NCBI GenBank assembly: GCA_963668315.1
Contig: OY764216.1
Location: forward strand, 4,256,001 to 4,320,000
Direction: 5' to 3'
Length of the DNA stretch: 64,000 nt
From: Spirochaetia bacterium
Lineage (GTDB): Bacteria; Spirochaetota; Spirochaetia; DSM-2461
Part shown: positions 1 to 22,929 of the stretch, piece by piece
How the letters are laid out: each line of letters starts with the position of its first letter
How positions within the stretch are numbered: position 1 is the stretch's first letter
Translations under genes and position numbers: made by a program
Notes under the pieces: generated by a model
The model's input: only the letters and a program-made list of their open reading frames with translations
Databases searched by the model: none
What the model was told of the DNA's origin: nothing

Positions 1-401
1 CCCTTACTGGCGACGAAAGCGACAGCCCCTTTACCATCATGTTTGCCCACAACACTGGAATGATAGACAAAATGGCTCTGTCGCTGAAACATGAGAAGTC
101 CCAGAACGGGACCGAGAAAGACAGAATTGATCAAGCCCCAGCGGGCCGGTTCCGTTGCAGGCTGGTAAGTAACCGTTGTCCCATCCTCTATGAGGAAAAC
201 ACCGATTTCTCTCCAGTACATAAACATCCCGGAAGGGACCTTCATCATGACCCTTAACCGGGATTGATCCACTTCCTCCGGAATCGTAACAACTCCTCTC
301 TTGAAGTAGACATCGTAATTCTCAACAGGAACAATCGGGGTAAAGGGAATCACTTCCACATCTGAACAGACAGTCATCCCGAAGGTCTTGTAGTAATACA
401 C
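1..401 (-). CDS. HPr-kinase-like lasso peptide kinase (PadeK type), 5' part, runs off the left edge
   Basis: Not in ORF track. Manual translation from GTG at 401 (AGGAG RBS at 411-415): MYYYKTFGMTVCSDVEV...FLGPVLGLLMFQRQSHFVYHSSVVGKHDGKGAVAFVASKG, open to the window edge. It matches the 'Y..FG....S' start and 'LG..LG.LL.QR....H.S.V...G.AVAF' pre-Walker-A pattern of lasso-cluster kinases and lies directly downstream of the precursor. Confidence 0.8.
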   Translation of the reverse strand, partial: MYYYKTFGMTVCSDVEVIPFTPIVPVENYDVYFKRGVVTIPEEVDQSRLRVMMKVPSGMFMYWREIGVFLIEDGTTVTYQPATEPARWGLINSVFLGPVLGLLMFQRQSHFVYHSSVVGKHDGKGAVAFVASK

Positions 402-461
402 GATGTCAAACTCCTAAAAACTTGGAAGAAGAGCTGCAGTATGATTTCGAATCAAAAGCAA

Positions 462-632
462 TTACGATGCGGAATAATCTTTGTTATCGGCAAAGGGATG
501 AGTGGTGGGATCGTCATCAAAAATGAGATCAACTCTCCACCAGTCATGCCAACCCAGTTTACCGACACCTTTTGTCAAATCCATTACCTCGCCAAGATCA
601 GTCATCTCGGGAGCGTTGTACACTTTTTTCAT
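462..632 (-). CDS. Lasso peptide precursor, 56 aa (21-aa leader plus predicted 35-aa core)
   Basis: Not in ORF track. AGGAGG RBS (638-643), ATG 632, TAA 462-464. Sequence MKKVYNAPEMTDLGEVMDLTK|GVGKLGWHDWWRVDLIFDDDPTTHPFADNKDYSAS has the YxxP leader motif, LG.V..LT with Thr at -2, Gly1, Asp9 and a C-terminal Ser. B1, B2, ABC and kinase genes are nearby. Confidence 0.9.
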   Translation of the reverse strand: MKKVYNAPEMTDLGEVMDLTKGVGKLGWHDWWRVDLIFDDDPTTHPFADNKDYSAS

Positions 633-705
633 TTATGCCTCCTGAAGCGTTTTAACATTATTAAATGAAAACTCTTTCTTCCAAGTATGTTATCATACAA
701 GGAAT

Positions 706-714
706 ATTATAGCA
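706..714 (-). promoter_or_regulatory. Candidate extended -10 promoter for the precursor/kinase transcript
   Basis: Minus strand reads TG-C-TATAAT (perfect TGnTATAAT) about 75 nt upstream of the precursor ATG. No clear -35 box. Confidence 0.45.
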
Positions 715-858
715 CACTTACAACACGTTTTCTTCATATTCCACATATTTCTTCCTAATTTATCAACATTTTCTAATTGTCAAATCGATACCGATATAAT
801 ATACGCCTTTTATCATGATAATAATGACTCGTTTACATTTTCCTGTGTCTATTATAAA

Positions 859-2118
859 ATGATTCCAATGAATAAAAACTGGTCCCGGCTGACAAGGGAA
901 GAAGAGCTGCTTCTCGCGCTTCTGAATGATGATGACGAAAAAACGGGACAACTCATGGACTCCCATCCCTCCTTGAATTACATGCGATTCTTTGATTTAC
1001 TGACTCTTCATAGAATCAGTCCTTTAATAATGGCAAAATTACTCAAGAACTCCCCTCGTATCCCTTTGCCGGCGGAGTACCTTAAAATCGCCAAACTTGA
1101 TATTCTACGAAACAGCGCGTTTAGAAAACTTCGATTACGGGAACTGCTGAAAGTAGTATCGTTATTGAACAAGCACAATTTTGACATTACCCTGATGAAG
1201 GGTTTTTCCTATGACCCTGATGATCTTTTCTTGCGTTATTTCACTGATATAGACTTGCTGATTGATGAAGATAAGATCCTAGAAGCAATAACAGTATTAA
1301 CTGGAAACGGCTACAATTACAAAGGCAGTTTTATTCTTTCCGAAAAGGAGAAACTTGATATTAATGGGCAGCTGATCTGGAATAATCAATATCAATTTAC
1401 AAGCCCCGGAACACAACTGACAATAGAAATCCATACCAATCTATTTGAAAGAGACAGGATACGCTATGAGAACCTTGAAGTACTCCTGAATCACCCCGAG
1501 ATTTTCAAGAACAACAGAACATGGAGTGACAAGTTAAGCTGCTTTGTTCCCTGTACGGAAGCCTGTCTTCTTCTTTTATGCCTCCACGGTTCGCTTAAAC
1601 GTTCCCTGGCCAATGATTCCTTTATCCTGCGCCATATAACCGACATGGACATACTCTTTTCCCGGGGGATAGATAGCAGCTATTTCATCAGCTTAGTTCA
1701 GAATACTCAGACAGCTTATCACCAGGCCTTTGCCCTTAATCTCTACGAAAGGATAAAAAAAATAGACAGGATGGCTTTGACAGAATCGATAATGGCACTC
1801 CTCTCTGCCAAAGAACTTCGCCTTATGAAATACCACCTATCCTGTATGAAAAACCTATACCACAGCAGCCGTTTTTATCGGTATGTATATCATCTGACAG
1901 CCCCTTTTATCATCGGGGCCCGGGGAAAAAAACGTATTCTCTGGATTCTCTCGGCATTTTTTAATTCGAAGGTACAGCAGGAACAACGCTACATGAAATA
2001 CGGAATCACGAAGGAATCACCCTTAATTTATCTAACCTATCTCATTAACCCCTTTCAGTCGACCTGGCAATTTTTCAAAAAAACAGGAAGAATGATAGGA
2101 AAAACACATCAGCGGTAA
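859..2118 (+). CDS. Nucleotidyltransferase family protein (NTP_transf_5-like, lasso-cluster type)
   Basis: LMKG...RYFTDIDLLI and IEIH motifs; located inside the lasso cluster. Confidence 0.8.
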   Translation: MIPMNKNWSRLTREEELLLALLNDDDEKTGQLMDSHPSLNYMRFFDLLTLHRISPLIMAKLLKNSPRIPLPAEYLKIAKLDILRNSAFRKLRLRELLKVVSLLNKHNFDITLMKGFSYDPDDLFLRYFTDIDLLIDEDKILEAITVLTGNGYNYKGSFILSEKEKLDINGQLIWNNQYQFTSPGTQLTIEIHTNLFERDRIRYENLEVLLNHPEIFKNNRTWSDKLSCFVPCTEACLLLLCLHGSLKRSLANDSFILRHITDMDILFSRGIDSSYFISLVQNTQTAYHQAFALNLYERIKKIDRMALTESIMALLSAKELRLMKYHLSCMKNLYHSSRFYRYVYHLTAPFIIGARGKKRILWILSAFFNSKVQQEQRYMKYGITKESPLIYLTYLINPFQSTWQFFKKTGRMIGKTHQR

Positions 2119-4839: not shown

Positions 4840-5934
4840 ATGTTGTATATTCTTAGGCATATGAAAAAAGAGGGAAAAATTAATCCTAACATTGAACTTT
4901 TACGGATTATATCGATTCTTGCTCTTGTTCTCTACCATGTTGCTTGTATGGGAGAAAGAAACAGTCACCTGGAAGAGCTTTTTCTTTACATTGCCGACAG
5001 GGGTTGGATGGGAACAGATATGTTTCTCGTTATAGCGGGCTATTTCTTCTATCGATCTTTTCTTCATACATATGAAGGAAATATATATTCATTCCTAAAA
5101 AGCCGTTTTTTTCGAATAGTCCCCTCCTATTTCCTCTTTGTTATTTTATACTTAACGATCGGATTATTTATTGAAAGGAAGGTAGGAAATACTTTTATAT
5201 TACCCAATGCTTATTGGCTTTATTTCCTTACATTTACGGCGAATATCCCCATGGCCATGGGCAATTGGAGCGGTGTTGCCCTGGAAGGTTTATTTGGGAT
5301 TTCCCTCCTTGTACAACTTTACTTAATTTTTCTCTTGATATTTTCCATAAGTAAAGACAAAAACAACCTTAAGAAAATACTGCTTATAATAGAAACGGTC
5401 GTGCTTATCAGCCGTTTCATTCCTTTGCTTAAAAACACAGCATGGTTCAGCTATTTTTTCACATTGACTAGAATGGACGGTTTCATTTTCGGGATTCTTT
5501 TGGCGGTTCTATATGAGGATAAGCAAGCTAAGGAACTGCTTATCCGACTAAAAACGAAAATTCTTCTCATTTCGTTTTTAGCGTTATTATCAACAGCCCC
5601 TTTTACAGGGATATTATCAGTTAACCACAGCAATACTTCCTGCCTGGCTTTTCCCCTTATAGGACTGTTCTTTTCCGCTCTACTGAACTATATTCTTACC
5701 TGGAGAATAAGGATTCCCCAGTTCTACGCGGGAGATTTTGTCTATTCCGTTTATCTTGTCAAACTCCCGTTAATATATATTGTTCTACGTTTTTTGGATC
5801 ATCTTCCCAATATAACACATATACCCTTCATCTCTGTTATAGCATCTCTGATATTCTGTATAGCCTGGGGAGCAGGATTAAGCTTTATTCATAAACATAG
5901 CTGTAAGCTGATAAAAGGAATTAACAAAAAGTAA
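4840..5934 (+). CDS. Membrane acyltransferase (Acyl_transf_3/OafA-like)
   Basis: IELLRIISILALVLYH, GWMGTDMFLVIAGY and FLKSRFFRIVP motifs; multi-TM; stop is 3 nt before the PKS start. Confidence 0.8.
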   Translation: MLYILRHMKKEGKINPNIELLRIISILALVLYHVACMGERNSHLEELFLYIADRGWMGTDMFLVIAGYFFYRSFLHTYEGNIYSFLKSRFFRIVPSYFLFVILYLTIGLFIERKVGNTFILPNAYWLYFLTFTANIPMAMGNWSGVALEGLFGISLLVQLYLIFLLIFSISKDKNNLKKILLIIETVVLISRFIPLLKNTAWFSYFFTLTRMDGFIFGILLAVLYEDKQAKELLIRLKTKILLISFLALLSTAPFTGILSVNHSNTSCLAFPLIGLFFSALLNYILTWRIRIPQFYAGDFVYSVYLVKLPLIYIVLRFLDHLPNITHIPFISVIASLIFCIAWGAGLSFIHKHSCKLIKGINKK

Positions 5935-5937
5935 CAT

Positions 5938-8900
5938 ATGAAAGATCGAAATTACTATGAAAGTTTGGAAGGCGCCATCGCCGTAATCGGAATGTCTGGA
6001 GCTTTCTCCAAATCGAAAGACATTAATGAATACTGGCAAAACATCCTTGCAGGCAGAGAATGTATTGATGATCTGACCGCTGAAGAGTTACAGGCCGCCG
6101 GAATACCCCAGGAACTTTCCGATAATCCCCTTTATGTGCGTCGGACCGCCGGCCTGGAATCGGCCAAGGAGTTTGACCCTGCCTTTTTTGGATATACCCC
6201 TGCGGAAGCCCGGCTTATGGATCCCCAGCACCGGCTTTTCCTGGAACACTCCTGGAAGTGTCTGGAAGACGGAAATATTATACCCGATCATTACGACGGT
6301 CTTATTGGTGTTTTCGGCGGATGCAGCCAGAATAATTATCTCTTAAAAAACCTCATTTATAGCGATCAGGCGGATAAAGCCGGTGCCTTTCAGATAATGA
6401 TCGGTAACGACAAGGATTATCTGACGACCAAAGTTTCCTACAAACTGAACCTCAAGGGCCCCAGCATTACCATGCAGACTGCCTGTTCCACATCCCTTAC
6501 GGCCATTCAGCAGGGATGCCTCTCTCTGCTCAATTACCAAAGTGATATGGCTCTGTGCGGGGGCGCTTCCGTCAATGTACCCTACAGGGGAGGCTACCTT
6601 TATCAGGACGGGATGATTTTTTCTCCCGATGGACATTGCCGCGCCTTTGACAAGGATGCAAACGGAACGGTTTTCGGTGACGGTGTAGGAGTTGTCCTTC
6701 TTAAGAGATTTGAAGATGCCCTAGAGGACGGAGATCTAATTCATGCCATAATCCGCGGGTCGGCGATTAATAACGACGGATCGGAAAAGGTCGGATATAC
6801 GGCTCCCGGTGTTAAGGCCCAAGCCGAAGTCGTCGCCACCGCCCTGGCAGTGGCTGATGTATCGGCAGATACAATCGGTTATGTTGAAACCCACGGCACA
6901 GGAACGCTTATGGGTGACCCCATCGAACTGGCGGCCCTGACAGAAGCCTTTCGTATGTCTACCGAGGAAAAAAACTACTGCCACATTGGATCGGCAAAAC
7001 CCAATATAGGCCATCTTGATGCGGCGGCAGGCGTCGCCAGTTTCATCAAAGCCGTCATGGTTCTCAAAACAGGGACTATACCGCCCTTGACAAACTTCAC
7101 ATCCCCCAATCCGGCATTAAACATAGAAGAGACTCCTTTTACCATAACTTCCACCCCCGTAAAATGGGATACGGAAGTGATACCCCGCCGAGCCGGAGTA
7201 AGCGCTTTAGGAGTAGGAGGAACGAATGTTCATCTGGTACTGGAGGAATATACTCCTTCGAAAGAACCTTCACCGGAACCGGGTGATAAGCCCAATCTTC
7301 TCGTTTTCTCCGCTAAATCAGAGGAATCCCTGACTAGACAGAAGGAACTTTTCTCTACGTTCCTGAAAAAAAAGGATATCTCCCTGCCTTCCCTGGCCTA
7401 TACGCTCCAGAAAAAACGGGTACCCTTCCCCTATCGGGACTTTCTGGTCACAGACGGAAAGGGTGAATATGACGAAAGTACATTCATAAATAAAAAGTCC
7501 CTTCCCTGCAACGGTTCGCCCGAAATTGCGTTTATATTCACCGGTCAGGGAAGTCAATATCCTAATATGGGAAAAAGTCTTTATGAATCGGTACCCTTCA
7601 TTAAAAAAATCATGGATCATGGTTTTTCTATTCTGGAACGAACCCATAATCTACCCCTCAAAGAAATTATCTACCCTGAAGGCTCCGCTTCCCTTAAGGA
7701 AAGCGAAATGAAACTTATGCAGACGACCTATACACAGCCAGCTTTGTTTCTTTTGGAATACGCCCTGGCCAGATATCTGATAATACTCGGTTTACAGCCG
7801 GCCTATCTTCTCGGCCATAGCCTGGGAGAGTACACCGCCGCCTGCCTGAGCGGGATTTTCACATTCGAAGATGCCCTGTCTCTCGTTGCGGAGCGGGGAC
7901 GGATCATGCAGACGGCACCAAAGGGTTCCATGATAAGCATCCCCCTTTCCCGTAACGCGATTGAATCCATGATTACCGGTGATCAGCTTCAGGTATCTGT
8001 CATTAACGCCCCGGATCGCTGTGTTGTATCCGGATCGGACGAGGCGGTGGACCTGTTTCAAAAAGAACTGACGGAAAAGGATATCCGCCACTCCCGTTTA
8101 AAGACCAGCCATGCTTATCACTCTTTTCTCATGGATAGCATACTGGATGAGTTCGCCTCAAGCTTTTCGTCCGTGACCTTTCATAAACCGGAGATTCCGA
8201 TTATCACCAACCAGTCCACAGAATCTTTCGGGTCGGAAAATATGGAAAGTGCTGAATACTGGGTAGATCAGCTCCGTCAACCGGTTGATTTTGATAAGGG
8301 GATTTCTCTTCTTCTCAAGAATAAAAACGTTACCCTGGTAGAAGTCGGACCCGGAAATACACTGATAACCCTAGCAAAGCTCAATCCTGATATGAAGGGA
8401 GATAATCTCTGCCTCCCTACGGTAAGAAACCCTAAACAGCAAACTCCGGACCATACCTTTTTCCTCACGGCTCTTGGAAAACTCTGGCAGAAAGGCCATT
8501 CTCTGCATTGGGATGAATTCTACGGTGAAAGGAAGCCCGAATATATCCGTATCCCCACCTATGAATTCGATAACAGAAGCTACTGGATAGAAGGGATAAA
8601 AAGCAAGAAATCCCCCCTTCCAATTGAGGAGACCGAGGAAAATTATATCGAAAAAAGGGAAGAACTGACGGTAAAAGAGAAGGTTCTTCATGTCTGGAGT
8701 GAAATCTTCGGCAACGATGATATCGGCGAAACGGATAATTTTTATGATATGGGAGGGCACTCCGTCCTGGCGACGCAGCTGCTTTCCAGAATAAACGAAA
8801 CCTTTAATCTGGAAATCGGCATGGGAGCCCTGCTCATGGAGCCGACACCGGCTAATTCCCTTGCTCTAGTGGAAGAACAGTTGCCCCGAAAAAAGCCCAC

Positions 8901-9771
8901 AGAAGTCCAATCTCCTTCTTCTCCGAAAGAGAAAGTCCTGCCCATGATGTTTCCCGTACAGAAGGGAGATCCTGAGAAAAAACCTCTTTTCATGGTGGCT
9001 GGTATGTACTTTAACCGGTATGATCATGAATCAGAGGAAGAGGGGCAGAGGAAATACGAAGAGGATTACTTCCGCTACTTCAGCACCCTGGTCAAAAACA
9101 TCGGAACGAGCCAACCAATATATGGTTTTCGACCAAAGGGGATTTTCCTTAATGAAAAACCCCATAAAAATGTTAAAGCAATGGCGGAGTCTTATATTAC
9201 AGAAATGAAAAAGATTCAGCCCGAAGGGCCTTATCTGATAGGAGGGGAATGTATCGGAGGTATTATTACTTACGAAATGGCTATGCAATTACAAGGACAG
9301 GGAGAGGAGGTCAAACACCTTATACTGATAGATACGTTCTATCCCAGGGCTAAAGCCATGTTTCGGGATGCTATTCGAGTAACATTATGGAGGTTTAAAG
9401 ACGAATTTATTACACCTCTGAAAAACAAGGAAAAATCCTTCATTAACCGTCTGTTAACCGTAATTAATCACTTGCAATTGTTTTTATTTCCCATAGGAAA
9501 AAAACAGAAAAATTTAAAACAGGTACAATACAGTAATGTGGCTTATATGTATCGGTTAATGAGTTATTCTCTTAAATTGTACGATAAAAAAAATATAACC
9601 CTTCTCGTGAATCAAGAGTGGAGCGATGACATCAGCCCCACCCTCAATTGGAAGAAAAAGCATATATTAAACGTAAATCTAATAACCGTTCCCGGAACTC
9701 ATGTTTCCTGTTTAACGGATTACGGACATATAACGGGCAAACACATAAGAGATATAATTGATAATGATTAA
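5938..9771 (+). CDS. Single-module type I PKS: KS-AT-ACP-TE
   Basis: KS QTACSTS, HGTGT and NIGH; AT GQGSQ, GHSLG and HAYH; ACP GGHS; TE-like domain with GECIG and C-terminal GTH. Confidence 0.93.
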   Translation: MKDRNYYESLEGAIAVIGMSGAFSKSKDINEYWQNILAGRECIDDLTAEELQAAGIPQELSDNPLYVRRTAGLESAKEFDPAFFGYTPAEARLMDPQHRLFLEHSWKCLEDGNIIPDHYDGLIGVFGGCSQNNYLLKNLIYSDQADKAGAFQIMIGNDKDYLTTKVSYKLNLKGPSITMQTACSTSLTAIQQGCLSLLNYQSDMALCGGASVNVPYRGGYLYQDGMIFSPDGHCRAFDKDANGTVFGDGVGVVLLKRFEDALEDGDLIHAIIRGSAINNDGSEKVGYTAPGVKAQAEVVATALAVADVSADTIGYVETHGTGTLMGDPIELAALTEAFRMSTEEKNYCHIGSAKPNIGHLDAAAGVASFIKAVMVLKTGTIPPLTNFTSPNPALNIEETPFTITSTPVKWDTEVIPRRAGVSALGVGGTNVHLVLEEYTPSKEPSPEPGDKPNLLVFSAKSEESLTRQKELFSTFLKKKDISLPSLAYTLQKKRVPFPYRDFLVTDGKGEYDESTFINKKSLPCNGSPEIAFIFTGQGSQYPNMGKSLYESVPFIKKIMDHGFSILERTHNLPLKEIIYPEGSASLKESEMKLMQTTYTQPALFLLEYALARYLIILGLQPAYLLGHSLGEYTAACLSGIFTFEDALSLVAERGRIMQTAPKGSMISIPLSRNAIESMITGDQLQVSVINAPDRCVVSGSDEAVDLFQKELTEKDIRHSRLKTSHAYHSFLMDSILDEFASSFSSVTFHKPEIPIITNQSTESFGSENMESAEYWVDQLRQPVDFDKGISLLLKNKNVTLVEVGPGNTLITLAKLNPDMKGDNLCLPTVRNPKQQTPDHTFFLTALGKLWQKGHSLHWDEFYGERKPEYIRIPTYEFDNRSYWIEGIKSKKSPLPIEETEENYIEKREELTVKEKVLHVWSEIFGNDDIGETDNFYDMGGHSVLATQLLSRINETFNLEIGMGALLMEPTPANSLALVEEQLPRKKPTEVQSPSSPKEKVLPMMFPVQKGDPEKKPLFMVAGMYFNRYDHESEEEGQRKYEEDYFRYFSTLVKNIGTSQPIYGFRPKGIFLNEKPHKNVKAMAESYITEMKKIQPEGPYLIGGECIGGIITYEMAMQLQGQGEEVKHLILIDTFYPRAKAMFRDAIRVTLWRFKDEFITPLKNKEKSFINRLLTVINHLQLFLFPIGKKQKNLKQVQYSNVAYMYRLMSYSLKLYDKKNITLLVNQEWSDDISPTLNWKKKHILNVNLITVPGTHVSCLTDYGHITGKHIRDIIDND

Positions 9772-10014
9772 TCAGCCAGCCAGGCGTCCTTCGATATAGC
9801 GAACCATCTTGTCCACGGAACCGAAGTTGTCACGGACCATATCTTCCGTTTCCACTTCGAATCCGTGGGTATTTTTCATATATGCCGATATCTCTACCAG
9901 ACCGAAAGAATCAATAATCCCCTCATCGATGAGCGATTTATCGTGGGGGATCTCTTCTAATTCCACCATAAAATTGTCCGCGATAAATTCGAGTAAACCT
10001 TTTTTAATTTCCAT
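9772..10014 (-). CDS. Stand-alone acyl carrier protein
   Basis: 80 aa, acidic, GIIDSFG phosphopantetheine site, DNFGSV tail. Confidence 0.9.
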   Translation of the reverse strand: MEIKKGLLEFIADNFMVELEEIPHDKSLIDEGIIDSFGLVEISAYMKNTHGFEVETEDMVRDNFGSVDKMVRYIEGRLAG

Positions 10015-10054
10015 AACTGTTCAAGCTCCTTAAATGTATGAAAGATATTTTATC

Positions 10055-12028
10055 TTAATTCTCATGAATTTCCACCCGTTTAAGTGATTCATCCAGACTT
10101 TCATGTCGGGGATTATCCATGGCCCGGCTGATCATCTGAGTGGAAAGAATGAAAGTAATGAGCATATTGTCCCTATAGCCTATCTGCTTTGGCATGCGGC
10201 GGGAAAACTTATTTATCAGCCGATTCACATATTTCTTATCGAATACTCCGGCCATATCCACCGCTTCCTCCGAAAGAAAGGGAGCCGCTTCGTCGGTCAG
10301 ACGTCCGTCGGAGAAGAAAGATTTCAGATCCGGCGCCTGATAAGGCTGCTTGGGCCTGTCTATAATGGAAGGGGGCACCACATCCCGGAAAGCATCGCGA
10401 AGGATGTGCTTCTGAGAAAATCCCTTAAGTTTGTAGTCGTCAGGATAGGCGAAGGCCTTTTCCACCAGACGGTGATCAAGGAAGGGATAGCGTCCCTCAA
10501 CACTGTGTCCCATGGACATCCGGTCCCCCTGGGAAGAGAGAAGGTAGCCGGGCAACAGGGTTTTCATCTCTAGATACTGCTCCTTCTGCATAAGGGACCA
10601 TTTCCCATAATCCGCAGGGAGGGTCTCTTTCAGGTTGGCCAGCAGTTCCTCCTTCTCATAGGTGACGGCATAATCCTTGTTCAGGTAGTTCCCCAGAATC
10701 CGGTTGTTATTCATGCGGATATTCAGGCCCATCAGATCGTTGTCGAAATCATCAAGGAAATCCTCGTAGTACATCTTCATGAAACCCATCTGGGTCTTGT
10801 CCTTGTAGTGGGAGAGGTGGGGATAAAGCTGGCCCAGCAGCTTTTCCACAGGGGCGTTATCCCTGTTGTCCCTCCACATCTGCAGCATCCGTACTTCCTT
10901 GAAAACATCGTAGCCGCAGAGAATCTCGTCGGCCGCTTCACCGGTCAAAACGACCTTGATGTTCTCTTCCCTCACCTTTCGGCTCAACAGGTAGAGAGGT
11001 ACTGGAGCGGTACGGAAGACGGGCCGTTCAAAGTGATAAGCCGCTTCGCCCAGGTAACTATTGATCATAGTGTAATCAATCTTCAAATCGATATGCTCGG
11101 AATTCAGCCGTTCCACCATCTCCTGCTGATAGACCGACTCATCATAGCCTTTGTCCGTAAAGGAGACAGCAAATGTCTTGAACCGGTCCTTATTGTGGAT
11201 TTTCGTCAGATGGGCAATAACCGAGGAGTCGATTCCCCCGGAAAGATAATTCCCTACGGGCACGTCACTTCTAAGCCGCAGGCGCACGGCGTCGCTTAGA
11301 AGCTCCACCATCTCCTCCCGGGCCTGTTCGTAATCCGGCGTCGGCAAGTCGTAATTCTCTCCCAGCTGATAATAGGTAAACCGGCGGGGCTCTTCCCCGA
11401 TGCGGTATTCAGCATAATCTCCGGCGGGCAGGGAAATAATATCGTTGTAGACGGTCCGGTCTCCCAGAGTGTTCCAGAGAAGACCATGCTCGTAGAGATT
11501 CTTCATGTGAAAGGAACGGTGGTATCCGGGAATCTGATCAAAGCACTTGAGTTCAGAGGCGAAATAGAAAACCCCCATATGGTCCAGCACATAGAGAGGA
11601 CGGATACCGTAGCGGTCCCGGGCCACAGTCAGAACCTTCTCCTTTTTATCCCAAAGGAGGATGGCGAACTGTCCGTTAAAGGAGGAAAAGGCGGCGGGAC
11701 CGTCCAGTTCAAAGGCCTTGAGAACTATCTCCGTGTCGCAGGTCGTCTTGAATTGAACACCCCGCTTCTCCATCTCCGCCCTAAGCTCAATGAAGTTAAA
11801 AACCTCCCCGTTAAAGGAGATGACGTATCTTCCCGTCGACATAGGCTGATGCCCCCCGGAGAGATCCTGAATGGAAAGCCGGGCATGGCCCAGGGCGACA
11901 TGGGAATCGGTGTAGAGCCCCCATCCGTCGGGTCCCCGGTGGCCTAGAACGGAAATCATCTTCTTCAAGGTGTCCTTCTGTTCTTCTCGCTCTCTATAAT
12001 ATCCTAAAAATCCGGTTATTCCGCACAT
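10055..12028 (-). CDS. asnB: Asparagine synthase-family glutamine amidotransferase
   Basis: MCGI N-terminal Cys, HRGPD, FNGE, LSGGIDS, TGEAADE and PFLDH motifs. Confidence 0.9.
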   Translation of the reverse strand: MCGITGFLGYYREREEQKDTLKKMISVLGHRGPDGWGLYTDSHVALGHARLSIQDLSGGHQPMSTGRYVISFNGEVFNFIELRAEMEKRGVQFKTTCDTEIVLKAFELDGPAAFSSFNGQFAILLWDKKEKVLTVARDRYGIRPLYVLDHMGVFYFASELKCFDQIPGYHRSFHMKNLYEHGLLWNTLGDRTVYNDIISLPAGDYAEYRIGEEPRRFTYYQLGENYDLPTPDYEQAREEMVELLSDAVRLRLRSDVPVGNYLSGGIDSSVIAHLTKIHNKDRFKTFAVSFTDKGYDESVYQQEMVERLNSEHIDLKIDYTMINSYLGEAAYHFERPVFRTAPVPLYLLSRKVREENIKVVLTGEAADEILCGYDVFKEVRMLQMWRDNRDNAPVEKLLGQLYPHLSHYKDKTQMGFMKMYYEDFLDDFDNDLMGLNIRMNNNRILGNYLNKDYAVTYEKEELLANLKETLPADYGKWSLMQKEQYLEMKTLLPGYLLSSQGDRMSMGHSVEGRYPFLDHRLVEKAFAYPDDYKLKGFSQKHILRDAFRDVVPPSIIDRPKQPYQAPDLKSFFSDGRLTDEAAPFLSEEAVDMAGVFDKKYVNRLINKFSRRMPKQIGYRDNMLITFILSTQMISRAMDNPRHESLDESLKRVEIHEN

Positions 12029-12029
12029 A

Positions 12030-15000
12030 CTATCGTTTCCTTACATTCTTCAGACGCTGAGCCGCATGACGGCTCCGTTCTGCCCGATCCAACAATTTAC
12101 CTATCCCCTCATCGGAAGAATTCATTTCCTGTCCCAGGTATCCCGCCAGACCTTTGACGGTGGTATGGATGAAAAGATCCGTCACGGGAATAGCACGGCC
12201 GAACCGCTCAGAGAGTTCCCGCTGAAGTTGAATAATGTGGAGAGAGGAACCTCCCAATTCAAAAAAGTTTTCCTCCCTGCCCACCTTCTCCAGCCCCAGC
12301 AGCTTCTTCCAGAGATCGGCGATAAACCCCTCCCCTTCCCCTTCGGGCAGAGTAAAGGGCTTATCCGACGGGGTATGGCAGATTCCCGGCTCGGGCAGGT
12401 TCTTCCTGTCCAGCTTCCCATTGGCGTTAAGGCTGATTTGCTCAACGAAGATAATCCGCTTGGGAACCATATGAAGAGGAAGACGCCGGCTCAGAAAAGA
12501 GATCAGCTCTTCCACGCTCAGCTCTTCACGTTTGACTATATAGGCAACAAGGGACTGATCGGCCCCAAACTCTCCGTGAACAATCACGACGGCCGTTTCC
12601 ACGGCGGGGTGGTCGTTAATCCCATTTTCGATTTCACCCAGCTCAATACGAAGCCCATGGAGCTGCACCTGGCTGTCGTTCCGGCCCAGATAGAGAATCT
12701 CCCCCTTGAGATTCCACTGCCCCAGATCTCCCGTCTTATACATCCGCCCCCCATCGAAAGGGTTGGGAACAAAGCGTTCCGCCGTCAGCTCCGGCTTGTT
12801 CAGATAACCCCGGGCCAGCTGAACACCGGCCAGATAAATCTCTCCGGTAACGCCGGGTGGCAGAGGATTCAATGCCTCATCCAAAATATGGATTTTCGTA
12901 TTGGCGACAGGCCTTCCTATGGGTACAACCCGGCAATCAGGCTTACAAGGCCAGTAGGTTACATCGATGGATGCCTCGGTAGGCCCGTAAAGATTATGGA
13001 GCCGGACATGGGGCAGCGTTTCATAGAACTCCCGCACCACCGCGGCGGGCAGAGCTTCTCCACTACACATCACATCACGCAGAGAGGGACAGTCCCCGGG
13101 ACGACAGCTCTTTAGGAACTCCCGTAGCATGGAGGGTACGAAATGGATAAGGGAAATATTCTCTCTCCCTATCGTTTCGATAAGATAGCCATTGTCCTTG
13201 TGACCCTCCGGTTCGGCGATGACCAGGGGCACTCCTTTCATCAAAGGCCACCAGAATTCCCAGCCGGAGACATCAAAATTATAGGGCGTCTTCTGGAAAA
13301 GCACATCCTTCCCGGTCAGCTCATACTCCTCATCCATCCACAAGATACGGTTAATCAAACCTCTATGGGTGATTTCCACTCCCTTGGGGCGACCGGTTGA
13401 ACCGGAGGTATAAAGGATGTAAACCCGGGAATCGGGATCTATAGCCGGGAAAAGCCCCTCTTCCTTACCGGCTGAAAAATCAAAGGTATCCAGGGCGGTA
13501 AAACCTTCCAGCCCGGAAAAGAGCGGGCGGTATTTCTCGTTGGAGAGGATCAGAGATAGCTGTGAATCCCCGCGAATATAAGCGATGTAATCGGCGGGAA
13601 GAGTCGGCTCGATAGGCAGATAGGTTCCCCCGGCCAGAACGATGGCGTACATACCTATGACCATCTCGAAAGAGCGTTCCAGGGAGAGGCCGACAATCGT
13701 CTCCGGACCGACGCCCTTCTCCTTAAGGTAAGCCGCTACAATCCTTACACGCCGGGCCAGTTCGCCGTAAGTCATGGTTTCGTCGCGGAAAATCAGCGCC
13801 CTTTCTTCGGGCCGAATCCGAACCTGTTCCAGAAAGGCGTCAATGACGCCGCCGGTAATCGGATAGTCCCGTTCCGTCCCATTCCAGGCAGCAATCATGT
13901 CCCGGCTCCGATCATCCATCACGCCCATGGAACCTACAGCGAGACTGTCCCTGTCCAGCCCCTGTTCCAGAAGAATCAGGAAGGAGGAAAAAAATCCCTC
14001 CACCCTCTCCCGGGTAAAAAGATCGGAACAGTACTCCACGGCCCAGCGGAAACGGTCGTTTTCCTGCCAGAAGTAAAAAAACAGATCCAGCTGGGCCGCA
14101 TCGGGAGCCGCATCCAGGGATTTAACATCCAATCCATCCAACTTCAATCCCATGGGGTGTTCGAAGGTGAATCCCACTTGGAAGAGAGGATTGTACTTGC
14201 CATCCCGCTTTCCCCTATTCAGCTTAACCACTTCCAGATAGGGAACGTTCTGGTTACGGTGCATGCCCAGCATCTTAACCCTGATCTGACGTAAAAGTTT
14301 CCTGAAGGTCATCCCCTCCCCGATGTTCAGGCAGAGGGGCAGGATATTCACAAAACAGCCGATGGTATCCTCAAAACCTTCCGGCCGGTTTGTCCGAGGA
14401 ATACCGATGGAGAAACGATTCTGACCGGAGAACCGGTTCAGAAAAACCGCGTAAGCAGAGAGAAGCACGAGAAATGGGTCGGAGCCCTGATTCCGGCAAT
14501 AGGCATCAAGTTTATCCTTAAGAGGACCGGGAAGCGACCCAAAAATCCGATGGCCCCGGGATGAGGGTATGGGCTGCCTATCTTTATCGGCAGGAAGGTT
14601 CAGTAAAGAACTTTCCAGGTGTTCATTCTCCCAGTAGGCAAGCATCTCTCGGTATTTGTCCGAATTGGCGAATTGTTCATACCAAACACCGTAATCGTCA
14701 TAGGAGCGGACCGGCTTCAGATCGGGTTCCCGGGATTTGGATAGTGAGTTATAGATTTCACTAAACTCGCGGGAAAAAATCTCCTTGGAACGAAGATCGA
14801 AAAGAATGTGATGAAAGAGGAATAGGAGATAGATTTGGGAGTCCTTTCTCCAGAGATGAGCTCGAAATAGGGGTTCCTCGTTCAGAACGAAGGGTGTATT
14901 AATGACCGAGGCACAATCCTCCGTTGAATAGAAACTATCATGATAGACAGGTTCTACCTTACCACCCCAATCATACCGCTCAGACATGATATCAAGGACC

Positions 15001-15146
15001 CGCTTAAATTGAATGCGATCAAGGGGACCGATGATTTCAAAGAGCGAGGCGAGGTTGTAAGCCCTGTTATCCGGATTCAGACGGGATACGAGCCGAAACT
15101 GTTCTTGTATGAGTGAGATTTTTGACTCTCCTTTCCCTTTTTCCAA
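12030..15146 (-). CDS. NRPS module C-A-T (A domain predicted Ser)
   Basis: C motif HHILFDL; A motifs YTSGSTGRPKG, YGPTE, YKTGD and NGKLD; T site LGGSS. Hand-aligned specificity code DVWHMSLIDK. Confidence 0.92.
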   Translation of the reverse strand: MEKGKGESKISLIQEQFRLVSRLNPDNRAYNLASLFEIIGPLDRIQFKRVLDIMSERYDWGGKVEPVYHDSFYSTEDCASVINTPFVLNEEPLFRAHLWRKDSQIYLLFLFHHILFDLRSKEIFSREFSEIYNSLSKSREPDLKPVRSYDDYGVWYEQFANSDKYREMLAYWENEHLESSLLNLPADKDRQPIPSSRGHRIFGSLPGPLKDKLDAYCRNQGSDPFLVLLSAYAVFLNRFSGQNRFSIGIPRTNRPEGFEDTIGCFVNILPLCLNIGEGMTFRKLLRQIRVKMLGMHRNQNVPYLEVVKLNRGKRDGKYNPLFQVGFTFEHPMGLKLDGLDVKSLDAAPDAAQLDLFFYFWQENDRFRWAVEYCSDLFTRERVEGFFSSFLILLEQGLDRDSLAVGSMGVMDDRSRDMIAAWNGTERDYPITGGVIDAFLEQVRIRPEERALIFRDETMTYGELARRVRIVAAYLKEKGVGPETIVGLSLERSFEMVIGMYAIVLAGGTYLPIEPTLPADYIAYIRGDSQLSLILSNEKYRPLFSGLEGFTALDTFDFSAGKEEGLFPAIDPDSRVYILYTSGSTGRPKGVEITHRGLINRILWMDEEYELTGKDVLFQKTPYNFDVSGWEFWWPLMKGVPLVIAEPEGHKDNGYLIETIGRENISLIHFVPSMLREFLKSCRPGDCPSLRDVMCSGEALPAAVVREFYETLPHVRLHNLYGPTEASIDVTYWPCKPDCRVVPIGRPVANTKIHILDEALNPLPPGVTGEIYLAGVQLARGYLNKPELTAERFVPNPFDGGRMYKTGDLGQWNLKGEILYLGRNDSQVQLHGLRIELGEIENGINDHPAVETAVVIVHGEFGADQSLVAYIVKREELSVEELISFLSRRLPLHMVPKRIIFVEQISLNANGKLDRKNLPEPGICHTPSDKPFTLPEGEGEGFIADLWKKLLGLEKVGREENFFELGGSSLHIIQLQRELSERFGRAIPVTDLFIHTTVKGLAGYLGQEMNSSDEGIGKLLDRAERSRHAAQRLKNVRKR

Positions 15147-15208
15147 TTTATCCCTTCTTCCCTTTATTCCATATCAATATCACGATGTCCCAGATGTCAG
15201 AGCATTGA

Positions 15209-17638
15209 TTATCTATCTATTTTCTCTTTAAGAAAATCGGCAAGCTTAACGACATGGGGTTGATTCAAGATCCCCATATGATCATCGGGGAGTTCCAGAA
15301 TACCAACTTGACCGGATGTCAAATCATTCCATCCCAGATCATCACTGAAGCTTTCTCCCTTGCTGTAAACATTTGTCAAAGCCCTTATCAGATAAATATC
15401 CCCGTCAATGGGAGTGGCTACCTTATCAAATACTTCGATGGCCTGATCATTGATGAAATCCCGCATCGCCTCGATATAAGCCTGATCTGGATTTAATTTA
15501 TTCTTTGGCTCTCCAGGTTTTCCCGATCTGTGTTTAAGAGACCTTAAGGCAGAGTATATCTTACCGAACGGCGTAAGTCTACGTGCATGGGGAAGATGGG
15601 AATCCAGAATAAACAGTTCCCCCCTGGCCCCTTCATTCGCTTTAATGAGTTTTGATGCTTCAAAAGCTATCATGCCCGCAATTGAAACTCCCAGAATATG
15701 ACAGGGCCCCTGGGGATAATACTTGCGGATATCCCTTAAATAAGCCCCGGCCATTCCCTGGATGGACACATACTCCCACTCGTCAATGGTTCCCCGCTGT
15801 ATATTATCTATCAGCTGTTCCTCATAGGGAAGGAATACACCATAAACTGGTCTCTCCCCTTCAAAACAGGCGGCCAGTTCTGAATAGATGTCAATTCCCC
15901 CCAGACAGAAGAGAGGGACCCCTTCAGTCGTATTATTCAGAAGGAGCACGGTCATCTCCTTATCTGATCCGGATTTAGCCTGATTTATCATATCATCGAT
16001 CACGGGATTCATGAAGAACGCCCCCAAGGGAACCGTCAGTCCGCAGAACTCACCAATCTCCCTTAAAAGCTGAACCGCCAGAATTGAATTCCCCCCAATT
16101 TCAAAAAAATTCTGATCTGTCGAGATATCCTCCCGCTGTAGAACCCTTTTCCAGACAAAGAGGATTTTCTCCTTTAAAGACAGGTCATCCCCATTTCCCT
16201 CAAGAACGATCTCCTTCACCTGCGGAAGGGGTAGATTTTTTCTGTCAATCTTGCCGTTTGTGTTCAGGAGAAACTTATCGAGGCGGACGAAATAGGCGGG
16301 GATCATATAATCGGGAAGAATCCGGGAAAGATGCTCCACCAGCACTCGCTCCTCCACAGGTTTACGTTCTATCAAATAGGCCACCAGATCCTTCATACCC
16401 TTGCGGACAACTTGAGGATGGACAACTGCACTTGCGATCTCGTCAAGCGTCAGAAGAGCGCTCTCGATTTCTCCCAGTTCGATCCGGAAACCGCGGATTT
16501 TCACCTGAAAGTCGGAACGGCCCAGACACTCAAGCCTGCCGTCGGCCATATAACGGACCAGATCTCCGGTCTTATATATGGTCTCCCCGGGGGTAAAGGG
16601 ATTGGGGATAAACACTTTCTCGGTCAAATCGGGCCTTTTAAAATAACCCGCAGCCAGCCCTTTGCCTCCTATGAAAAGATCCCCTTCGACCCCATGGAGC
16701 ACTTTATTCATATTCTCATCAAGAATATAGATTTCCGTATTATCAATGGGTTCACCTATGGATATAGGTTTATCCCTCTCCACTTTTTCGATGGTAGACC
16801 ACACGGTCGTTTCTGTCGGACCATACATGTTCCAAAGCTCGCCGCAACGGTCCAATAATTCCTCTGCCAGTTCCGGCGTTAACGCTTCCCCTCCGCATAA
16901 CACCTTCAGATTATCCTTCCCTTTCCAGCCTGCGTCGATAAGCATTCTCCATGTTACGGGAGTAGCCTGCATTACGGTAATGTCATAACTATCCAGGGCA
17001 GAAATTATGGAATCGGGATCATGTGATTCATTTTTATCCAGAAGAAACAATTGCGCACCCGTACGAATAGGCAAGAAAATCTCAAGTACGGAAATATCAA
17101 AGGATACCGTTGTGACAGCAAGAAGTCGATCATTTGCTGTTAATCCGGGTTTCTTAGCCATGGAATCGAGAAAATTGTCCATGGCAGGGCGGGGTATCAT
17201 AACCCCCTTAGGTTTACCGGTGGAACCGGAAGTAAAGATAATGTAGGCAATACTCTCTCTGTCCTGGCAAAACTCCCGGCTCACTGGTTCTGGAACACTC
17301 TCATCGGAGGAAAGAGAATCCACATCAATCTTGACAGAATCAGAAGGAAGCTTTGACAGATAATGGCCATGAGTAAGAATCAGGTCCGGTTTAACATCCT
17401 CCAGAATCATATTAATCCTTTCGGCAGGATGGTCCGGGTCCAGAGGGATATAAGTGTTGCCGGTAATAAGGCAAGCATTTACTGCGGCGACAAGAGCAGG
17501 AGTTCTATCCAGGTAGATACCTACGTTTAACCCCGTTTTGGGGAATTCTGAAATCCTATGACAGATAAGATTAATAAGATTCCCAAACTCAACTTTTTCC
17601 CCATGGTAGACTAGCGTATCCATTGCTTCTTTCGTCAT
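15209..17638 (-). CDS. NRPS A-T-TE (A domain predicted Gly)
   Basis: FTSGSTGKPKG, YGPTE and NGKID; T site IGGNS; TE GVSIAG and DDH. Hand-aligned code DILQLGMVWK. Confidence 0.9.
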   Translation of the reverse strand: MTKEAMDTLVYHGEKVEFGNLINLICHRISEFPKTGLNVGIYLDRTPALVAAVNACLITGNTYIPLDPDHPAERINMILEDVKPDLILTHGHYLSKLPSDSVKIDVDSLSSDESVPEPVSREFCQDRESIAYIIFTSGSTGKPKGVMIPRPAMDNFLDSMAKKPGLTANDRLLAVTTVSFDISVLEIFLPIRTGAQLFLLDKNESHDPDSIISALDSYDITVMQATPVTWRMLIDAGWKGKDNLKVLCGGEALTPELAEELLDRCGELWNMYGPTETTVWSTIEKVERDKPISIGEPIDNTEIYILDENMNKVLHGVEGDLFIGGKGLAAGYFKRPDLTEKVFIPNPFTPGETIYKTGDLVRYMADGRLECLGRSDFQVKIRGFRIELGEIESALLTLDEIASAVVHPQVVRKGMKDLVAYLIERKPVEERVLVEHLSRILPDYMIPAYFVRLDKFLLNTNGKIDRKNLPLPQVKEIVLEGNGDDLSLKEKILFVWKRVLQREDISTDQNFFEIGGNSILAVQLLREIGEFCGLTVPLGAFFMNPVIDDMINQAKSGSDKEMTVLLLNNTTEGVPLFCLGGIDIYSELAACFEGERPVYGVFLPYEEQLIDNIQRGTIDEWEYVSIQGMAGAYLRDIRKYYPQGPCHILGVSIAGMIAFEASKLIKANEGARGELFILDSHLPHARRLTPFGKIYSALRSLKHRSGKPGEPKNKLNPDQAYIEAMRDFINDQAIEVFDKVATPIDGDIYLIRALTNVYSKGESFSDDLGWNDLTSGQVGILELPDDHMGILNQPHVVKLADFLKEKIDR

Positions 17639-17670: not shown

Positions 17671-18588
17671 TCAGTCGTATAAACCGGCAGGAGGTGCGGG
17701 GATTTTTTCCAAACGGGCCCCCAGTTTAAAGCGGCTTCTCTGCCATGCTCTGAGAGATTTTCGAAATGCCAGATCGGGATATCTTTTCATAGGGCTGAAC
17801 ATGGCCTTCAGGTATCCCAAGAGGATATAAAATCCTCCGACGATATAGGGTTTTTCGGTACTTCTGTAAATAGAAATAGCAATGACATACCAAAGGGGAG
17901 TCCCCATAAAGTACTGTCCCCTTCCCCATCGAAGACGACCGGTGTAAATTCCTTTGAAAGAAGATCCCATCTGCCTTAGATGAATAAATTCAAGCTCCCT
18001 ATTCCTGATGCTTCGCGTCCTCCAACCGAACATACGGGCCCGGTGAAAGGTAATACCGTCCCAGTGTACTTCTTTAACAAAACCGCCGATCTGTTCAAAA
18101 CATTCCCGGCGATAAAAATTTATCATGCCGGCGACCATCTCATCGTTGTGACGCTCTTCTACCAGTTTACCGTTTTCATTAACATAGGGCTTACCGCTGG
18201 CCGCTCCCAATTGGGGGTCCTTATCAAAATAATCAAGAAGGGTATCAAAATATCTACTCTTGAAGTCAATATCTCCGTCCATCTTGCAGATAAAATCATA
18301 ATCTTTGCTTTCGATCCTGTCATAACCATAATAGAAAGCTTCAACCACTCCGGGACCGACAGCCCGTTCTCCCCGATCCGGTTTCTGAATAAGCCGAATC
18401 CACGGATTATTCTTACTCGCCTCACGAACCAGCTCCGCCGTTCTGTCCTTGGAACCGTCATCCACGACGATCCATTCGACGGGAAGAACACCTTCCTGAT
18501 TAATTAGGGAATCTATCGTCTTTTGAATGTACTCTTCTTCATCTCTCACGGGAGACACTATTACGATTTTGTCTTTTCTTTGGCTCAT
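17671..18588 (-). CDS. GT2 glycosyltransferase
   Basis: SPVRDEE, VDDGSKD and KMDGD motifs. Confidence 0.88.
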   Translation of the reverse strand: MSQRKDKIVIVSPVRDEEEYIQKTIDSLINQEGVLPVEWIVVDDGSKDRTAELVREASKNNPWIRLIQKPDRGERAVGPGVVEAFYYGYDRIESKDYDFICKMDGDIDFKSRYFDTLLDYFDKDPQLGAASGKPYVNENGKLVEERHNDEMVAGMINFYRRECFEQIGGFVKEVHWDGITFHRARMFGWRTRSIRNRELEFIHLRQMGSSFKGIYTGRLRWGRGQYFMGTPLWYVIAISIYRSTEKPYIVGGFYILLGYLKAMFSPMKRYPDLAFRKSLRAWQRSRFKLGARLEKIPAPPAGLYD

Positions 18589-18614
18589 TTTCCTATCCTT
18601 ATTACTATGTACTA

Positions 18615-19679
18615 CTATAGATCTTTTCGAATCAATTTATCCAACTCAACGGCAATCTTTTTATTGTTCTCCACCGTAATATGACCATCACTCTTAAAAT
18701 TAACTGGATTTTTCGTCGAAACTATATCCCCGGTATTAAGATAATCCACCTCCAAATCGTCAAGAAAAGAAGTAAAACTTTCTCCCAAAGCATCATTGTA
18801 TTTCTGCGTTTCAATGAGAATAACGACAGGAGTACAACCGTATTCCCTCGCTTCCTTGACGAAAAGAGAAATGAGATCTTCAGCCTGTGAAACGATCTCT
18901 TCATTAAACTTATGATTGTGGAATACTTTTTCCGTTACATTATTATTATGCTTACTCTTATACCACCGTTTAATAAAACGTCCTATTATTGAATAATCAA
19001 GGACATTACGTTTATAGATAAAGGGGGAATAGGATTTATCGTACTTCTCCAGCAAATCAAGATTTTCATTCCACAACTCTCTATCAGACAACGCCGTCTG
19101 CAAATCTTCAAAGGAGTTAATATAAGGAGTAATCTGTTCATAACCTTCCGGAGAGACAACAAACTGGGAGTAAAATGACCCCATGGGAGTATCCACCCCA
19201 ATCGTGTCGTTAGTCATAGCATTAATATACTTTAGAGAAGAATCCAAAACTCCGAGAGCTGCAAATCTAGATGTACATACATCCTTATCGACCAAGAAAG
19301 AGGATAGTGAGTGATTTATAGGAGAAGCGGGTCCATCAATCTTTCTTACGAGAAGCTCATTATCCAACCCTATCAGCTGATCGGCGATATGATTACTAAA
19401 CGACATACCATAAAAAGTAATATCTGCGGTTGTGCCTCTTTGTCTGAATTTCTCGTCGCTAATCCAACCGGAATGAAGTACTGAATTCGCTGGAATTTCC
19501 TTTTTGAACATTTCACGAATTTGCATTTCCGTAGAGAGCCCATAGGAAAAAAATTTATTTAGCTTCTCATTATTAAGAACTTTCAGTAAAAACTGTGAAC
19601 CAATATCAAAAACCACAAGCCAGACGATAATGATCAGCGATGTTCTTTCTAATTTGTGAATAATTTCTCTCATATTCAA
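18615..19679 (-). CDS. Membrane-anchored SGNH-like/AlgJ-like acyl-transfer partner (putative)
   Basis: N-terminal TM anchor, YGMSFS (GDSF-like) and C-terminal SDGH (DxH) motif; immediately downstream of the MBOAT gene. Confidence 0.55.
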   Translation of the reverse strand: MNMREIIHKLERTSLIIIVWLVVFDIGSQFLLKVLNNEKLNKFFSYGLSTEMQIREMFKKEIPANSVLHSGWISDEKFRQRGTTADITFYGMSFSNHIADQLIGLDNELLVRKIDGPASPINHSLSSFLVDKDVCTSRFAALGVLDSSLKYINAMTNDTIGVDTPMGSFYSQFVVSPEGYEQITPYINSFEDLQTALSDRELWNENLDLLEKYDKSYSPFIYKRNVLDYSIIGRFIKRWYKSKHNNNVTEKVFHNHKFNEEIVSQAEDLISLFVKEAREYGCTPVVILIETQKYNDALGESFTSFLDDLEVDYLNTGDIVSTKNPVNFKSDGHITVENNKKIAVELDKLIRKDL

Positions 19680-19685
19680 GCTCCT

Positions 19686-21089: not shown

Positions 21090-21455
21090 ACTTTTTTTTA
21101 CTTTTCCTTAAAACATTAGTTATCGATAAAGTTATCACAGATTATCATTTTTTTCTAACATTCATAAATGAAATATTTTTTTTAACCCATATCACTTTTA
21201 ATACAAAAAAAAGGAGAAAACATTTGGTGAATTAAATTTTAACCAATAATTAATATCCCTACTTGATAACAATATCAGATCTGCCCTAAAAACAATAAAA
21301 ATAAAACCATAGTGCATAATAATACCTTACTATAAATGTGTTATTTTTATATAAAGGTGCTAGAATATTATTTGTGATACAGGATGACAAATGGAAAGTA
21401 ATATATTTTCCGAAAATAGTTATCCGCAATTATATAATAAAGGAAATAATACTCC

Positions 21456-22430: not shown

Positions 22431-22929
22431 ATTACAAAAAGATCTAGCAACATATGGAGGAAACAGATGGGCTCCGGGTTACCGGGTCATGCGTGTCTAC
22501 CGATTCGGGAATTGGCGCTATGAAATAAAGAATCCACTTCTCCGGAAGCCCTTCTCCCTACTATATAAATATCTATATCGAAAAATTATAGAAAAAACAG
22601 GAATTGAACTCCCTTGTGAGGCAAGGGTAGGTCAGAATTTCCGAATCGACCATCAATCGGGAATTGTGGTTAGTGGATTTACGGAAATCGGTGATAACTG
22701 TGTCATTAGAAACGGTGTTACCATAGGATTGAAAAATACTGACGTACTAAAAGCACCAAAAATCGGTAATAATGTAGATATTGGTACCGGAGCGAAAATC
22801 CTTGGAGATATAACTATTGGAGACAATGTTCATATTGGAGCCAATGCAGTTGTCCTGATAGATATTCCATCCAATTCTCTAGCAGTAGGAACACCTGCGC
22901 GCATTATTCCCAAGGAAAACAAAGCATGA
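22414..22929 (+). CDS. Hexapeptide-repeat O-acetyltransferase (WcaB/CysE-like)
   Basis: Left-handed beta-helix repeats, IGANAVV...G.PAR; within a GT operon. Confidence 0.85.
   Translation: MTMLSELQKDLATYGGNRWAPGYRVMRVYRFGNWRYEIKNPLLRKPFSLLYKYLYRKIIEKTGIELPCEARVGQNFRIDHQSGIVVSGFTEIGDNCVIRNGVTIGLKNTDVLKAPKIGNNVDIGTGAKILGDITIGDNVHIGANAVVLIDIPSNSLAVGTPARIIPKENKA

Follow-up and report, generated by a model that had tools for sequence, protein, structure and literature searches.

A probable lasso cassette with a kinase and a nucleotidyltransferase

What does a lasso-peptide cassette that carries a kinase and a nucleotidyltransferase make when it sits among polysaccharide genes? The case examined here lies at the left edge of a 64,000-nucleotide stretch of DNA (the window, G000:C1:4256001-4320000) from a single-contig genome of 5.62 Mb. 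The host is likely a spirochaete; three FlaA (PF04620) matches in its genome exceed the cut-off, compared with 0 in 14 control genomes. We lean towards an intact kinase and nucleotidyltransferase lasso cassette of the pseudomycoidin type inside a polysaccharide locus, whose product would probably be a knotted Gly1-Asp9 macrolactam with a (poly)phosphorylated Ser35 bearing a sugar. The DNA itself documents all seven genes with their catalytic motifs, selection that acts on the precursor as a whole, and a location within the locus.

Because the window edge falls within the kinase gene, the genome was read leftwards past it, and negative coordinates denote positions left of the window. The cassette, split by this edge, is complete, with genes for a cyclase (C), a kinase (K), a precursor (A), a PF14907 nucleotidyltransferase (N), an ABC exporter, a leader peptidase (B2) and an RRE protein (B1). 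The precursor gene (462-632, minus strand), preceded by an AGGAGG site, encodes 56 amino acids, 21 in the leader and 35 in the core. YxxP and a Thr at -2 (Thr20) in the leader, together with Gly1 and Asp9 in the core, are the marks of a class II lasso precursor. Only two serines are found in the core, Ser33 and the last residue, Ser35, and no Ser or Thr precedes core position 22. In cyclic form and without modification, the core would have a monoisotopic mass of 4041.87. The lasso leader models NF033528 and NF033521 gave weak matches below cut-off, and a homologue search with the precursor returned only itself. K (312 aa, HprK-like; -537..401, minus strand, G000:C1:4255463-4256401) starts at 401, 60 bases past the precursor stop, with its 5′ part (1..401) inside the window. 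N (419 aa; 859-2118, plus strand, probable start 868) scores 79 bits on PF14907 (cut-off 31.2) and is divergent from the precursor. An earlier note on this DNA had described a kinase directly downstream of the precursor, a divergent nucleotidyltransferase and a C-terminal Ser on the core, and all three were confirmed.

Outside the window lies C (652 aa; -2501..-543, minus strand, G000:C1:4253499-4255457), with SGGLDS at 262. Against the lasso cyclase model NF033535, which fits it far better than any other model, C reaches 500 bits (cut-off 525), where the window's two AsnB genes reach 217 and 185; its score on the AsnB model is 248 (cut-off 267). To the right of N, all on the minus strand, are an MsbA-like ABC exporter of 599 aa (2109-3908; PF00005 and PF00664), B2, a transglutaminase-like protease (3932-4456; NF033537, 83.7 bits against a cut-off of 33) with Cys107 and His143, and B1, a PqqD-family protein of 96 aa (4368-4658; PF05402, 74 bits). 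This pair, too, is expected of a class II lasso cluster. C, K, A, N, B1 and B2 occur in one copy each in the genome, where C also has three distant AsnB-like matches.

The precursor was compared with that of a relative, found on contigs of one independent sample (runs X5 and X6); two further runs, X1 and X2, match the window exactly and are possibly its source. Ten differences separate the two reading frames: ATG>GTG at the start, and nine synonymous changes at third positions that are distributed across leader, ring and tail. All nine internal changes are thus synonymous, compared with a random expectation of 20% (100 of 495 possible single changes). Since the relative's changes are nearly all synonymous, the reading frame is more than chance, and the pattern indicates that the entire precursor, tail included, is under purifying selection.

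Three features of the region were considered and dropped. The tail is not unusually long, as the cores of 76 related precursors span 15-54 aa and 11 of them exceed 35. The divergent N/A layout is a rearrangement found in G000 alone; four related cassettes have the nucleotidyltransferase divergent from B1-B2. The AT-rich spacer (633..858, 28% GC) has promoter-like sites towards A (684-657) and N (832-860), whose positions are suggestive only, with a regional site count that barely exceeds that of shuffles. Promoter and terminator scans, with 21 and 14 sites compared with 14.9 and 9.8 in shuffles, were uninformative.

The kinase and the Ser35 site

Residues H114, K137, D154 and D155 of K are invariant across 30 homologues and form the His-Lys-Asp-Asp motif given for lasso kinases (PMC9266682). 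The first glycine of Walker A is replaced by Ala in K, likewise in its nearest relatives, and matches to HprK-related families are weak and below cut-off.

Kinase alignments led to 80 genome loci and 9 metagenome loci, the latter mostly short. The precursor script was run on 85 of these 89 loci (the four most distant metagenome loci were omitted) and assigned a precursor to 76 of them, at most 4.5 kb from the kinase. Ser is the last residue in 42 of the 76, compared with 8% Ser at internal positions, although some pattern matches are possibly false. The two nearest kinases on the tree, from genome G014 and, as the orthologue of K, from G001 (support 95 and 100), each lie downstream of a Ser-terminal precursor. 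The G014 precursor is 66% identical over 50 aa and its kinase 53%, and Ser35 is unchanged in the relative from the independent sample. With neither Ser nor Thr in the first 21 core positions, Ser35 (or Ser33) is the likely site, and the motif and the site together suggest that K probably phosphorylates Ser35. A tail ending in a glycosylated phosphoserine had been proposed. Its phosphoserine is well supported by inference from the intact motif, the two core serines and the retained terminal Ser, and its sugar follows one precedent in E. coli.

In five cyanobacterial loci (L026, L044, L050, L051 and L067) a pair of kinase cassettes lies in tandem. Of the upstream precursors, none of the four read was Ser-terminal, and the precursor of the nucleotidyltransferase-bearing cassette was Ser-terminal in 4 of 5.

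The nucleotidyltransferase

K114, G115, D130 and D132 of N are invariant across 55 homologues. D130/D132 corresponds to the DxD essential in PsmN, the nucleotidyltransferase of pseudomycoidin, where D134A/D136A abolishes activity (PMC6993621). The predicted structure of N (predicted local distance difference test score 87) has a Pol-beta-type fold, in agreement with Foldseek. Its matches include MenT1 (Z 12.4), 5uvd (11.5), ANT(2'') 4xje (11.4; root-mean-square deviation 3.3 over 163 aligned residues), LnuA (10.0) and FKRP (7.7). They fall mostly on residues 78-288, and a common fold is no proof of function; ANT(2'') 4xje is one of two entries named for PsmN (PMC6993621). The C-terminal 84 aa of N are basic and aromatic, with 15 K/R, 2 D/E and 16 aromatic residues. 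A sequence search of the PDB with the nucleotidyltransferase profile returned no meaningful match, and a search of plasmids with N returned none. Judged by their residues, both kinase and nucleotidyltransferase look active.

Matches to the N profile were found in 22 of 301 genomes of the host's class. Among 18 further N neighbourhoods that were fetched, several on short contigs, one held a cyclase and three a glycan gene. A nucleotidyltransferase is present in 33 of the 44 kinase cassettes with full 10-kb flanks.

The cassette lies inside a polysaccharide locus

The cassette is close to the left end of a glycan locus of about 88 kb. The earlier note had it abutting such a locus; instead it lies inside, with a priming sugar transferase (Bac_transf, PF02397, 204.6 bits; -6290..-5082, minus strand, G000:C1:4249710-4250918) 5.5 kb left of the precursor, the sole one that the profile found for the locus. 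A glycan locus starting about 4 kb away had also been claimed. The locus is there, but the gene at 4840 is an acyltransferase (Acyl_transf_3), and about 12 kb of other genes follow before the first glycosyltransferase at 17.7 kb; the nearest Wzx flippase on this side is at 51 kb. By Pfam and NCBIfam, these genes (4840..17638) comprise, besides the acyltransferase, a type I polyketide synthase (PKS), an acyl carrier protein (ACP), an AsnB-type amidotransferase and two genes resembling nonribosomal peptide synthetases (NRPS), likely a glycan-decorating block. The body of the locus (17671..64000, continuing to about 4.337 Mb) carries GT2, MBOAT, WecG, RgpF, GT61, GT4, two Wzx and Branch genes and ends with an AlgX/MBOAT pair near 4.337 Mb.

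To assess how often such cassettes lie near glycan genes, 40 of the 80 genome loci were each paired with a 20-kb control from the same genome; all 40 have complete 10-kb flanks, as do four others that were left aside. Controls lay about 100 kb away where possible and otherwise at the contig end or on contig C1; four controls shorter than 19 kb were dropped with their pairs, leaving 36 pairs. Local profiles for GT4, GT2, Wzx, priming transferase, Wzc, WecG and Wza were used. Cassette loci supplied some of the profile seeds, each of those among the 36 retaining another match, and the Wzc profile, the sole match in one locus, probably also catches ParA-like proteins. A glycan gene was found within 10 kb in 22 of 36 cassette loci versus 7 of 36 controls, with 16 versus 1 discordant pairs (sign test p = 0.0003, kin not being independent). 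The enrichment is seen in Cyanobacteria (12 versus 3 of 19) and in the others (10 versus 4 of 17). The co-location with glycan genes raised in the earlier note is real, though not every cassette shows it; wzx is seldom close, lying within 10 kb in 1 of 36 cassette loci.

Co-variation of nucleotidyltransferase, terminal Ser and glycan gene was rejected as evidence. Loci with the nucleotidyltransferase differ from those without it in raw counts, both for terminal Ser (21/33 versus 2/11) and for a glycan gene (23/33 versus 2/11), and the raw Fisher p-values of the three associations are 0.014, 0.005 and 0.03. On the kinase tree there are 4, 4 and 2 independent pairs, with p = 1. Five of the 11 loci that lack the nucleotidyltransferase belong to one Nostoc/Anabaena clade.

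A slot shared with two congeners

The kinase is present in 5 of 60 relatives. Two congeners, G001 and G003, have a cassette in the identical slot, adjoining the same unannotated 566-aa gene. In G001 the gene order is retained, running from housekeeping genes upstream through the priming transferase and the cassette to PKS, ACP, AsnB, NRPS, GT2 and Wzx. With C of G000 as query, no lasso cyclase was found in G001 (96% complete), where the best match, at 22%, is its AsnB, nor in G003 (90% complete, with a contig that begins within the kinase). Conserved in the slot, then, are K, N, B1, B2 and the ABC exporter, and ring formation is not. Alongside a pair of kinases, G001 carries a phosphoribosyltransferase-like gene and, at L010:17221-17415 and L011:283-444, two precursors with no Asp or Glu at positions 7-9, one of them Ser-terminal. 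From this gene content, the G001 cassette is likely a linear phosphopeptide system processed by B2 rather than by a signal peptidase.

The G000 cassette itself looks mosaic. Its K, C, A and ABC exporter are nearest to those of G014, which belongs to another genus (53, 49, 66 and 63% identity). N, B1 and B2 are nearest to the congeners (47-50, 59-66 and 64-65%), compared with 44, 40 and 45% for G014.

Proposed chemistry and its alternatives

The closest chemical precedent is pseudomycoidin: in E. coli, its mono- to triphosphorylation depended on PsmK, and the attachment of one or two hexoses to the phosphate depended on PsmN (PMC6993621). The main PsmN-dependent products carry one phosphate and one or two hexoses and require the kinase; the peptide was isolated unthreaded, it was unseen in the native host, and the authors left the chemistry of PsmN open (PMC6993621). 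PMC11912497 records no in vitro activity.

K would likely phosphorylate the linear precursor at Ser35, adding one to four phosphates, B1/B2 would, with similarly high probability, remove the leader after Lys-1, and C would close Gly1 onto Asp9. We see about an even chance that N then forms a Ser-phosphate-sugar diester, placing a sugar on the Ser35 phosphate. In enzymes of the fold of N, a hydroxyl attacks the alpha-phosphate of a triphosphate; in ANT(2'') this is a sugar hydroxyl. The fold suggests that N would most likely take the polyphosphate of the peptide itself for the activated donor, with a sugar hydroxyl as the nucleophile. From a Ser-triphosphate, a peptide-phosphate-sugar with a single phosphate would result in a kinase-dependent manner, as in the main PsmN products. 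The sugar would probably come from the surrounding locus, the acceptor being a small sugar or the locus polymer, and the ABC exporter would ship the product out.

Several observations weigh against this explanation. The score of the cyclase is slightly below the cut-off of its own family. Terminal Ser is lacking in 34 of the 76 related precursors, and the cores of L100, L103 and L177, which closely resemble the G000 core over the first ten residues, terminate in SG, SGN and SG. Two other kinases modify Ser3, namely BsfK (PMC10368454) and LppK (PMC13381572). The hexose on pseudomycoidin was observed in E. coli only (PMC6993621), and deletion of lppN was without effect in B. subtilis (PMC13381572). 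The links of the nucleotidyltransferase to terminal Ser and to glycan genes fail on the tree, with 4 independent pairs each. Adjacency to glycan genes, which the congeners' slot maintains, is absent from 14 of the 36 cassette loci. The closest full cassette, that of G014, has an aldose epimerase and a RibD_C gene as its neighbours, on a contig of only 8.6 kb.

In one alternative, akin to the conjugate that the earlier note had raised as possible, the peptide would be covalently grafted through the Ser35 phosphate onto the surface polysaccharide or a lipid-linked repeat unit, decorating the polymer instead of being released free. The position inside the locus speaks for it, as does the slot kept in two congeners though the ability to form a ring was not kept in G001. 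Two studies report no free product in native hosts (PMC6993621, PMC13381572), and in one of them a lasso cluster was induced together with an exopolysaccharide gene (PMC13381572). The locus also encodes other systems that add substituents (MBOAT, acyltransferases, adenylation enzymes, amidotransferases), and the basic, aromatic C-terminal part of N could sit on the membrane. Against these stand the related cassettes that have no glycan genes nearby, the rarity of wzx next to them and an exporter of the cassette's own. Pseudomycoidin, moreover, bore just one or two hexoses (PMC6993621), and in the literature searched, mostly without subscription papers, no printed case or proposal of a peptide-polymer bond and no proposal of a peptidyl-triphosphate donor was seen. 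On balance we consider grafting unlikely. Similarly tentative is a specific form of it, in which kinase and nucleotidyltransferase act as a peptide-to-glycan ligase pair: Ser35-triphosphate would mimic a nucleoside triphosphate, and N would transfer the peptidyl-phosphate onto a polysaccharide hydroxyl, releasing pyrophosphate. This scheme would explain polyphosphorylation by the kinase, the one phosphate plus sugar on PsmN products and the lack of free product in native hosts. If true, the cell surface polymer would be studded with a gene-encoded, swappable peptide, knotted in G000 and linear in the congener.

We also doubt that the cassette makes only a free phospho-lasso, with the glycan locus a mere hotspot of gene exchange and N idle or acting elsewhere. 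The many transposase-like genes at about 30-44 kb, the mosaic cassette and the silent lppN deletion fit this reading, but N retains all its invariant catalytic residues and accompanies most full-flank kinase cassettes, and the glycan enrichment holds both within and outside Cyanobacteria.

Equally unlikely is that N caps phospho-Ser35 with a nucleoside monophosphate (NMP), or transfers sugar-phosphate from a nucleotide sugar as FKRP and LicD do, with a separate glycosyltransferase finishing the product; close fold matches of known activity (MenT1, ANT(2''), LnuA) do transfer NMP and a partner enzyme is raised in PMC6993621 and PMC13381572, but the main PsmN products have the composition given above, no NMP adduct was reported, and sugar-phosphate transfer onto phosphoserine would leave two phosphates, for which there was just one minor peak (PMC6993621).

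Comparison with known systems

Likened by motif and fold rather than by sequence, the cassette resembles psmCAKB1B2ND of Bacillus pseudomycoides DSM 12442 (PMC6993621). The two have in common the same seven gene types, a ring from residue 1 to Asp9, a C-terminal Ser on the precursor, the DD of the kinase (within His-Lys-Asp-Asp in G000) and a nucleotidyltransferase with DxD and an ANT(2'')-like fold. G000 differs in its probable spirochaete host, in the nucleotidyltransferase on the opposite strand, in the gene order B1-B2-ABC><N and A-K-C, and in a 35-aa core with a 26-aa tail and a Trp-rich loop.

The paeninodin family (PadeK, ThcoK) likewise has a His-Lys-Asp-Asp kinase, a terminal Ser and frequent polysaccharide-gene neighbours (PMC9266682, PMC13381572). 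Paeninodins are described as restricted to Bacillota, with Trp-favouring WxxP leaders (PMC13381572), whereas the G000 leader has YxxP and the host is likely a spirochaete, which places the cassette outside the strict clade; the pade cluster, unlike G000, has no nucleotidyltransferase. The linear polyphosphorylated peptides (LPPs; PMC13381572) combine kinase, nucleotidyltransferase, RRE and MsbA-like exporter in capsule loci, much like the cyclase-less G001 cassette. They have a signal-peptidase-like protease, no cyclase and a modified Ser3, whereas G000 has B2, C and Gly at core position 3 and is thus not an LPP. The Bsf cluster of Bradymonas sediminis (PMC10368454) also has a Gram-negative host, a YxxP leader and K and N genes. 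Its kinase modifies Ser3 and its leader has Ile at -2; G000, whose leader has Thr at that position and whose ring lacks Ser, falls outside this subfamily (Ser/Thr at core position 3).

The gene set is thus already known from pseudomycoidin, and co-location with capsular polysaccharide loci is often found for paeninodins and LPPs in Bacilli (PMC13381572), so that the bare finding repeats both. What is added is a probable spirochaete host, to which the cassette and its tie to a polysaccharide locus are extended (no spirochaete example was found in the literature searched), selection on the peptide, a ring-less twin in the same slot and testable chemistry. Congeners that share the slot allow a natural comparison, the peptide of one being predicted to form a ring and that of the other not. 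Papers of 2025-2026 describe as open questions what phosphorylated lasso peptides do and which substrate PsmN-type enzymes truly act on (PMC11912497, PMC13381572). Grafting onto a polymer, were it to occur, would give ribosomal peptides a new use and the nucleotidyltransferase fold a new reaction.

Further features of the locus and of related cassettes

Besides the genes above, a type I PKS that stands alone (KS-AT-ACP-TE), a free ACP, several genes of NRPS-like type and 3-4 AsnB-like amidotransferases occur at 5938-17638, 24665-27307 and 55133-58327 of the window. They interleave with glycosyltransferases, MBOAT and flippases, and the block, which is partly kept in G001, looks like machinery to acylate or aminoacylate the glycan. 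A cluster of duplicated genes, labelled transposase-like from sequence appearance only, interrupts the glycan locus at 30095-44020. The locus has three Wzx-type flippase paralogues (window 51005-55114 and L196:2575-3906), the others being 66 and 43% identical to the first; two of the three flank an unannotated 439-aa protein, a possible polymerase.

The phosphoribosyltransferase-like protein of G001 (L011:458-1333) recurs in kinase and nucleotidyltransferase cassettes at L014:15728-16933 (G045), L176 (G120), L044:2925-4145 and L050:5259-6473, in several cases with a C-terminal PqqD/RRE fusion. Three cassettes of the host's class have its gene at the cyclase position, between precursor and kinase, with precursors lacking Asp or Glu at 7-9. 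It is possibly an undescribed tailoring enzyme of RiPPs, peptides made by the ribosome and modified after translation. Finally, in other members of the class, cores of 8-11 aa behind lasso-type leaders lie beside a kinase and a nucleotidyltransferase (L017:7577-7723 and 15715-15861, L018:8066-8227 from G048, L187 and L193), with no cyclase seen within the stretch of these loci.

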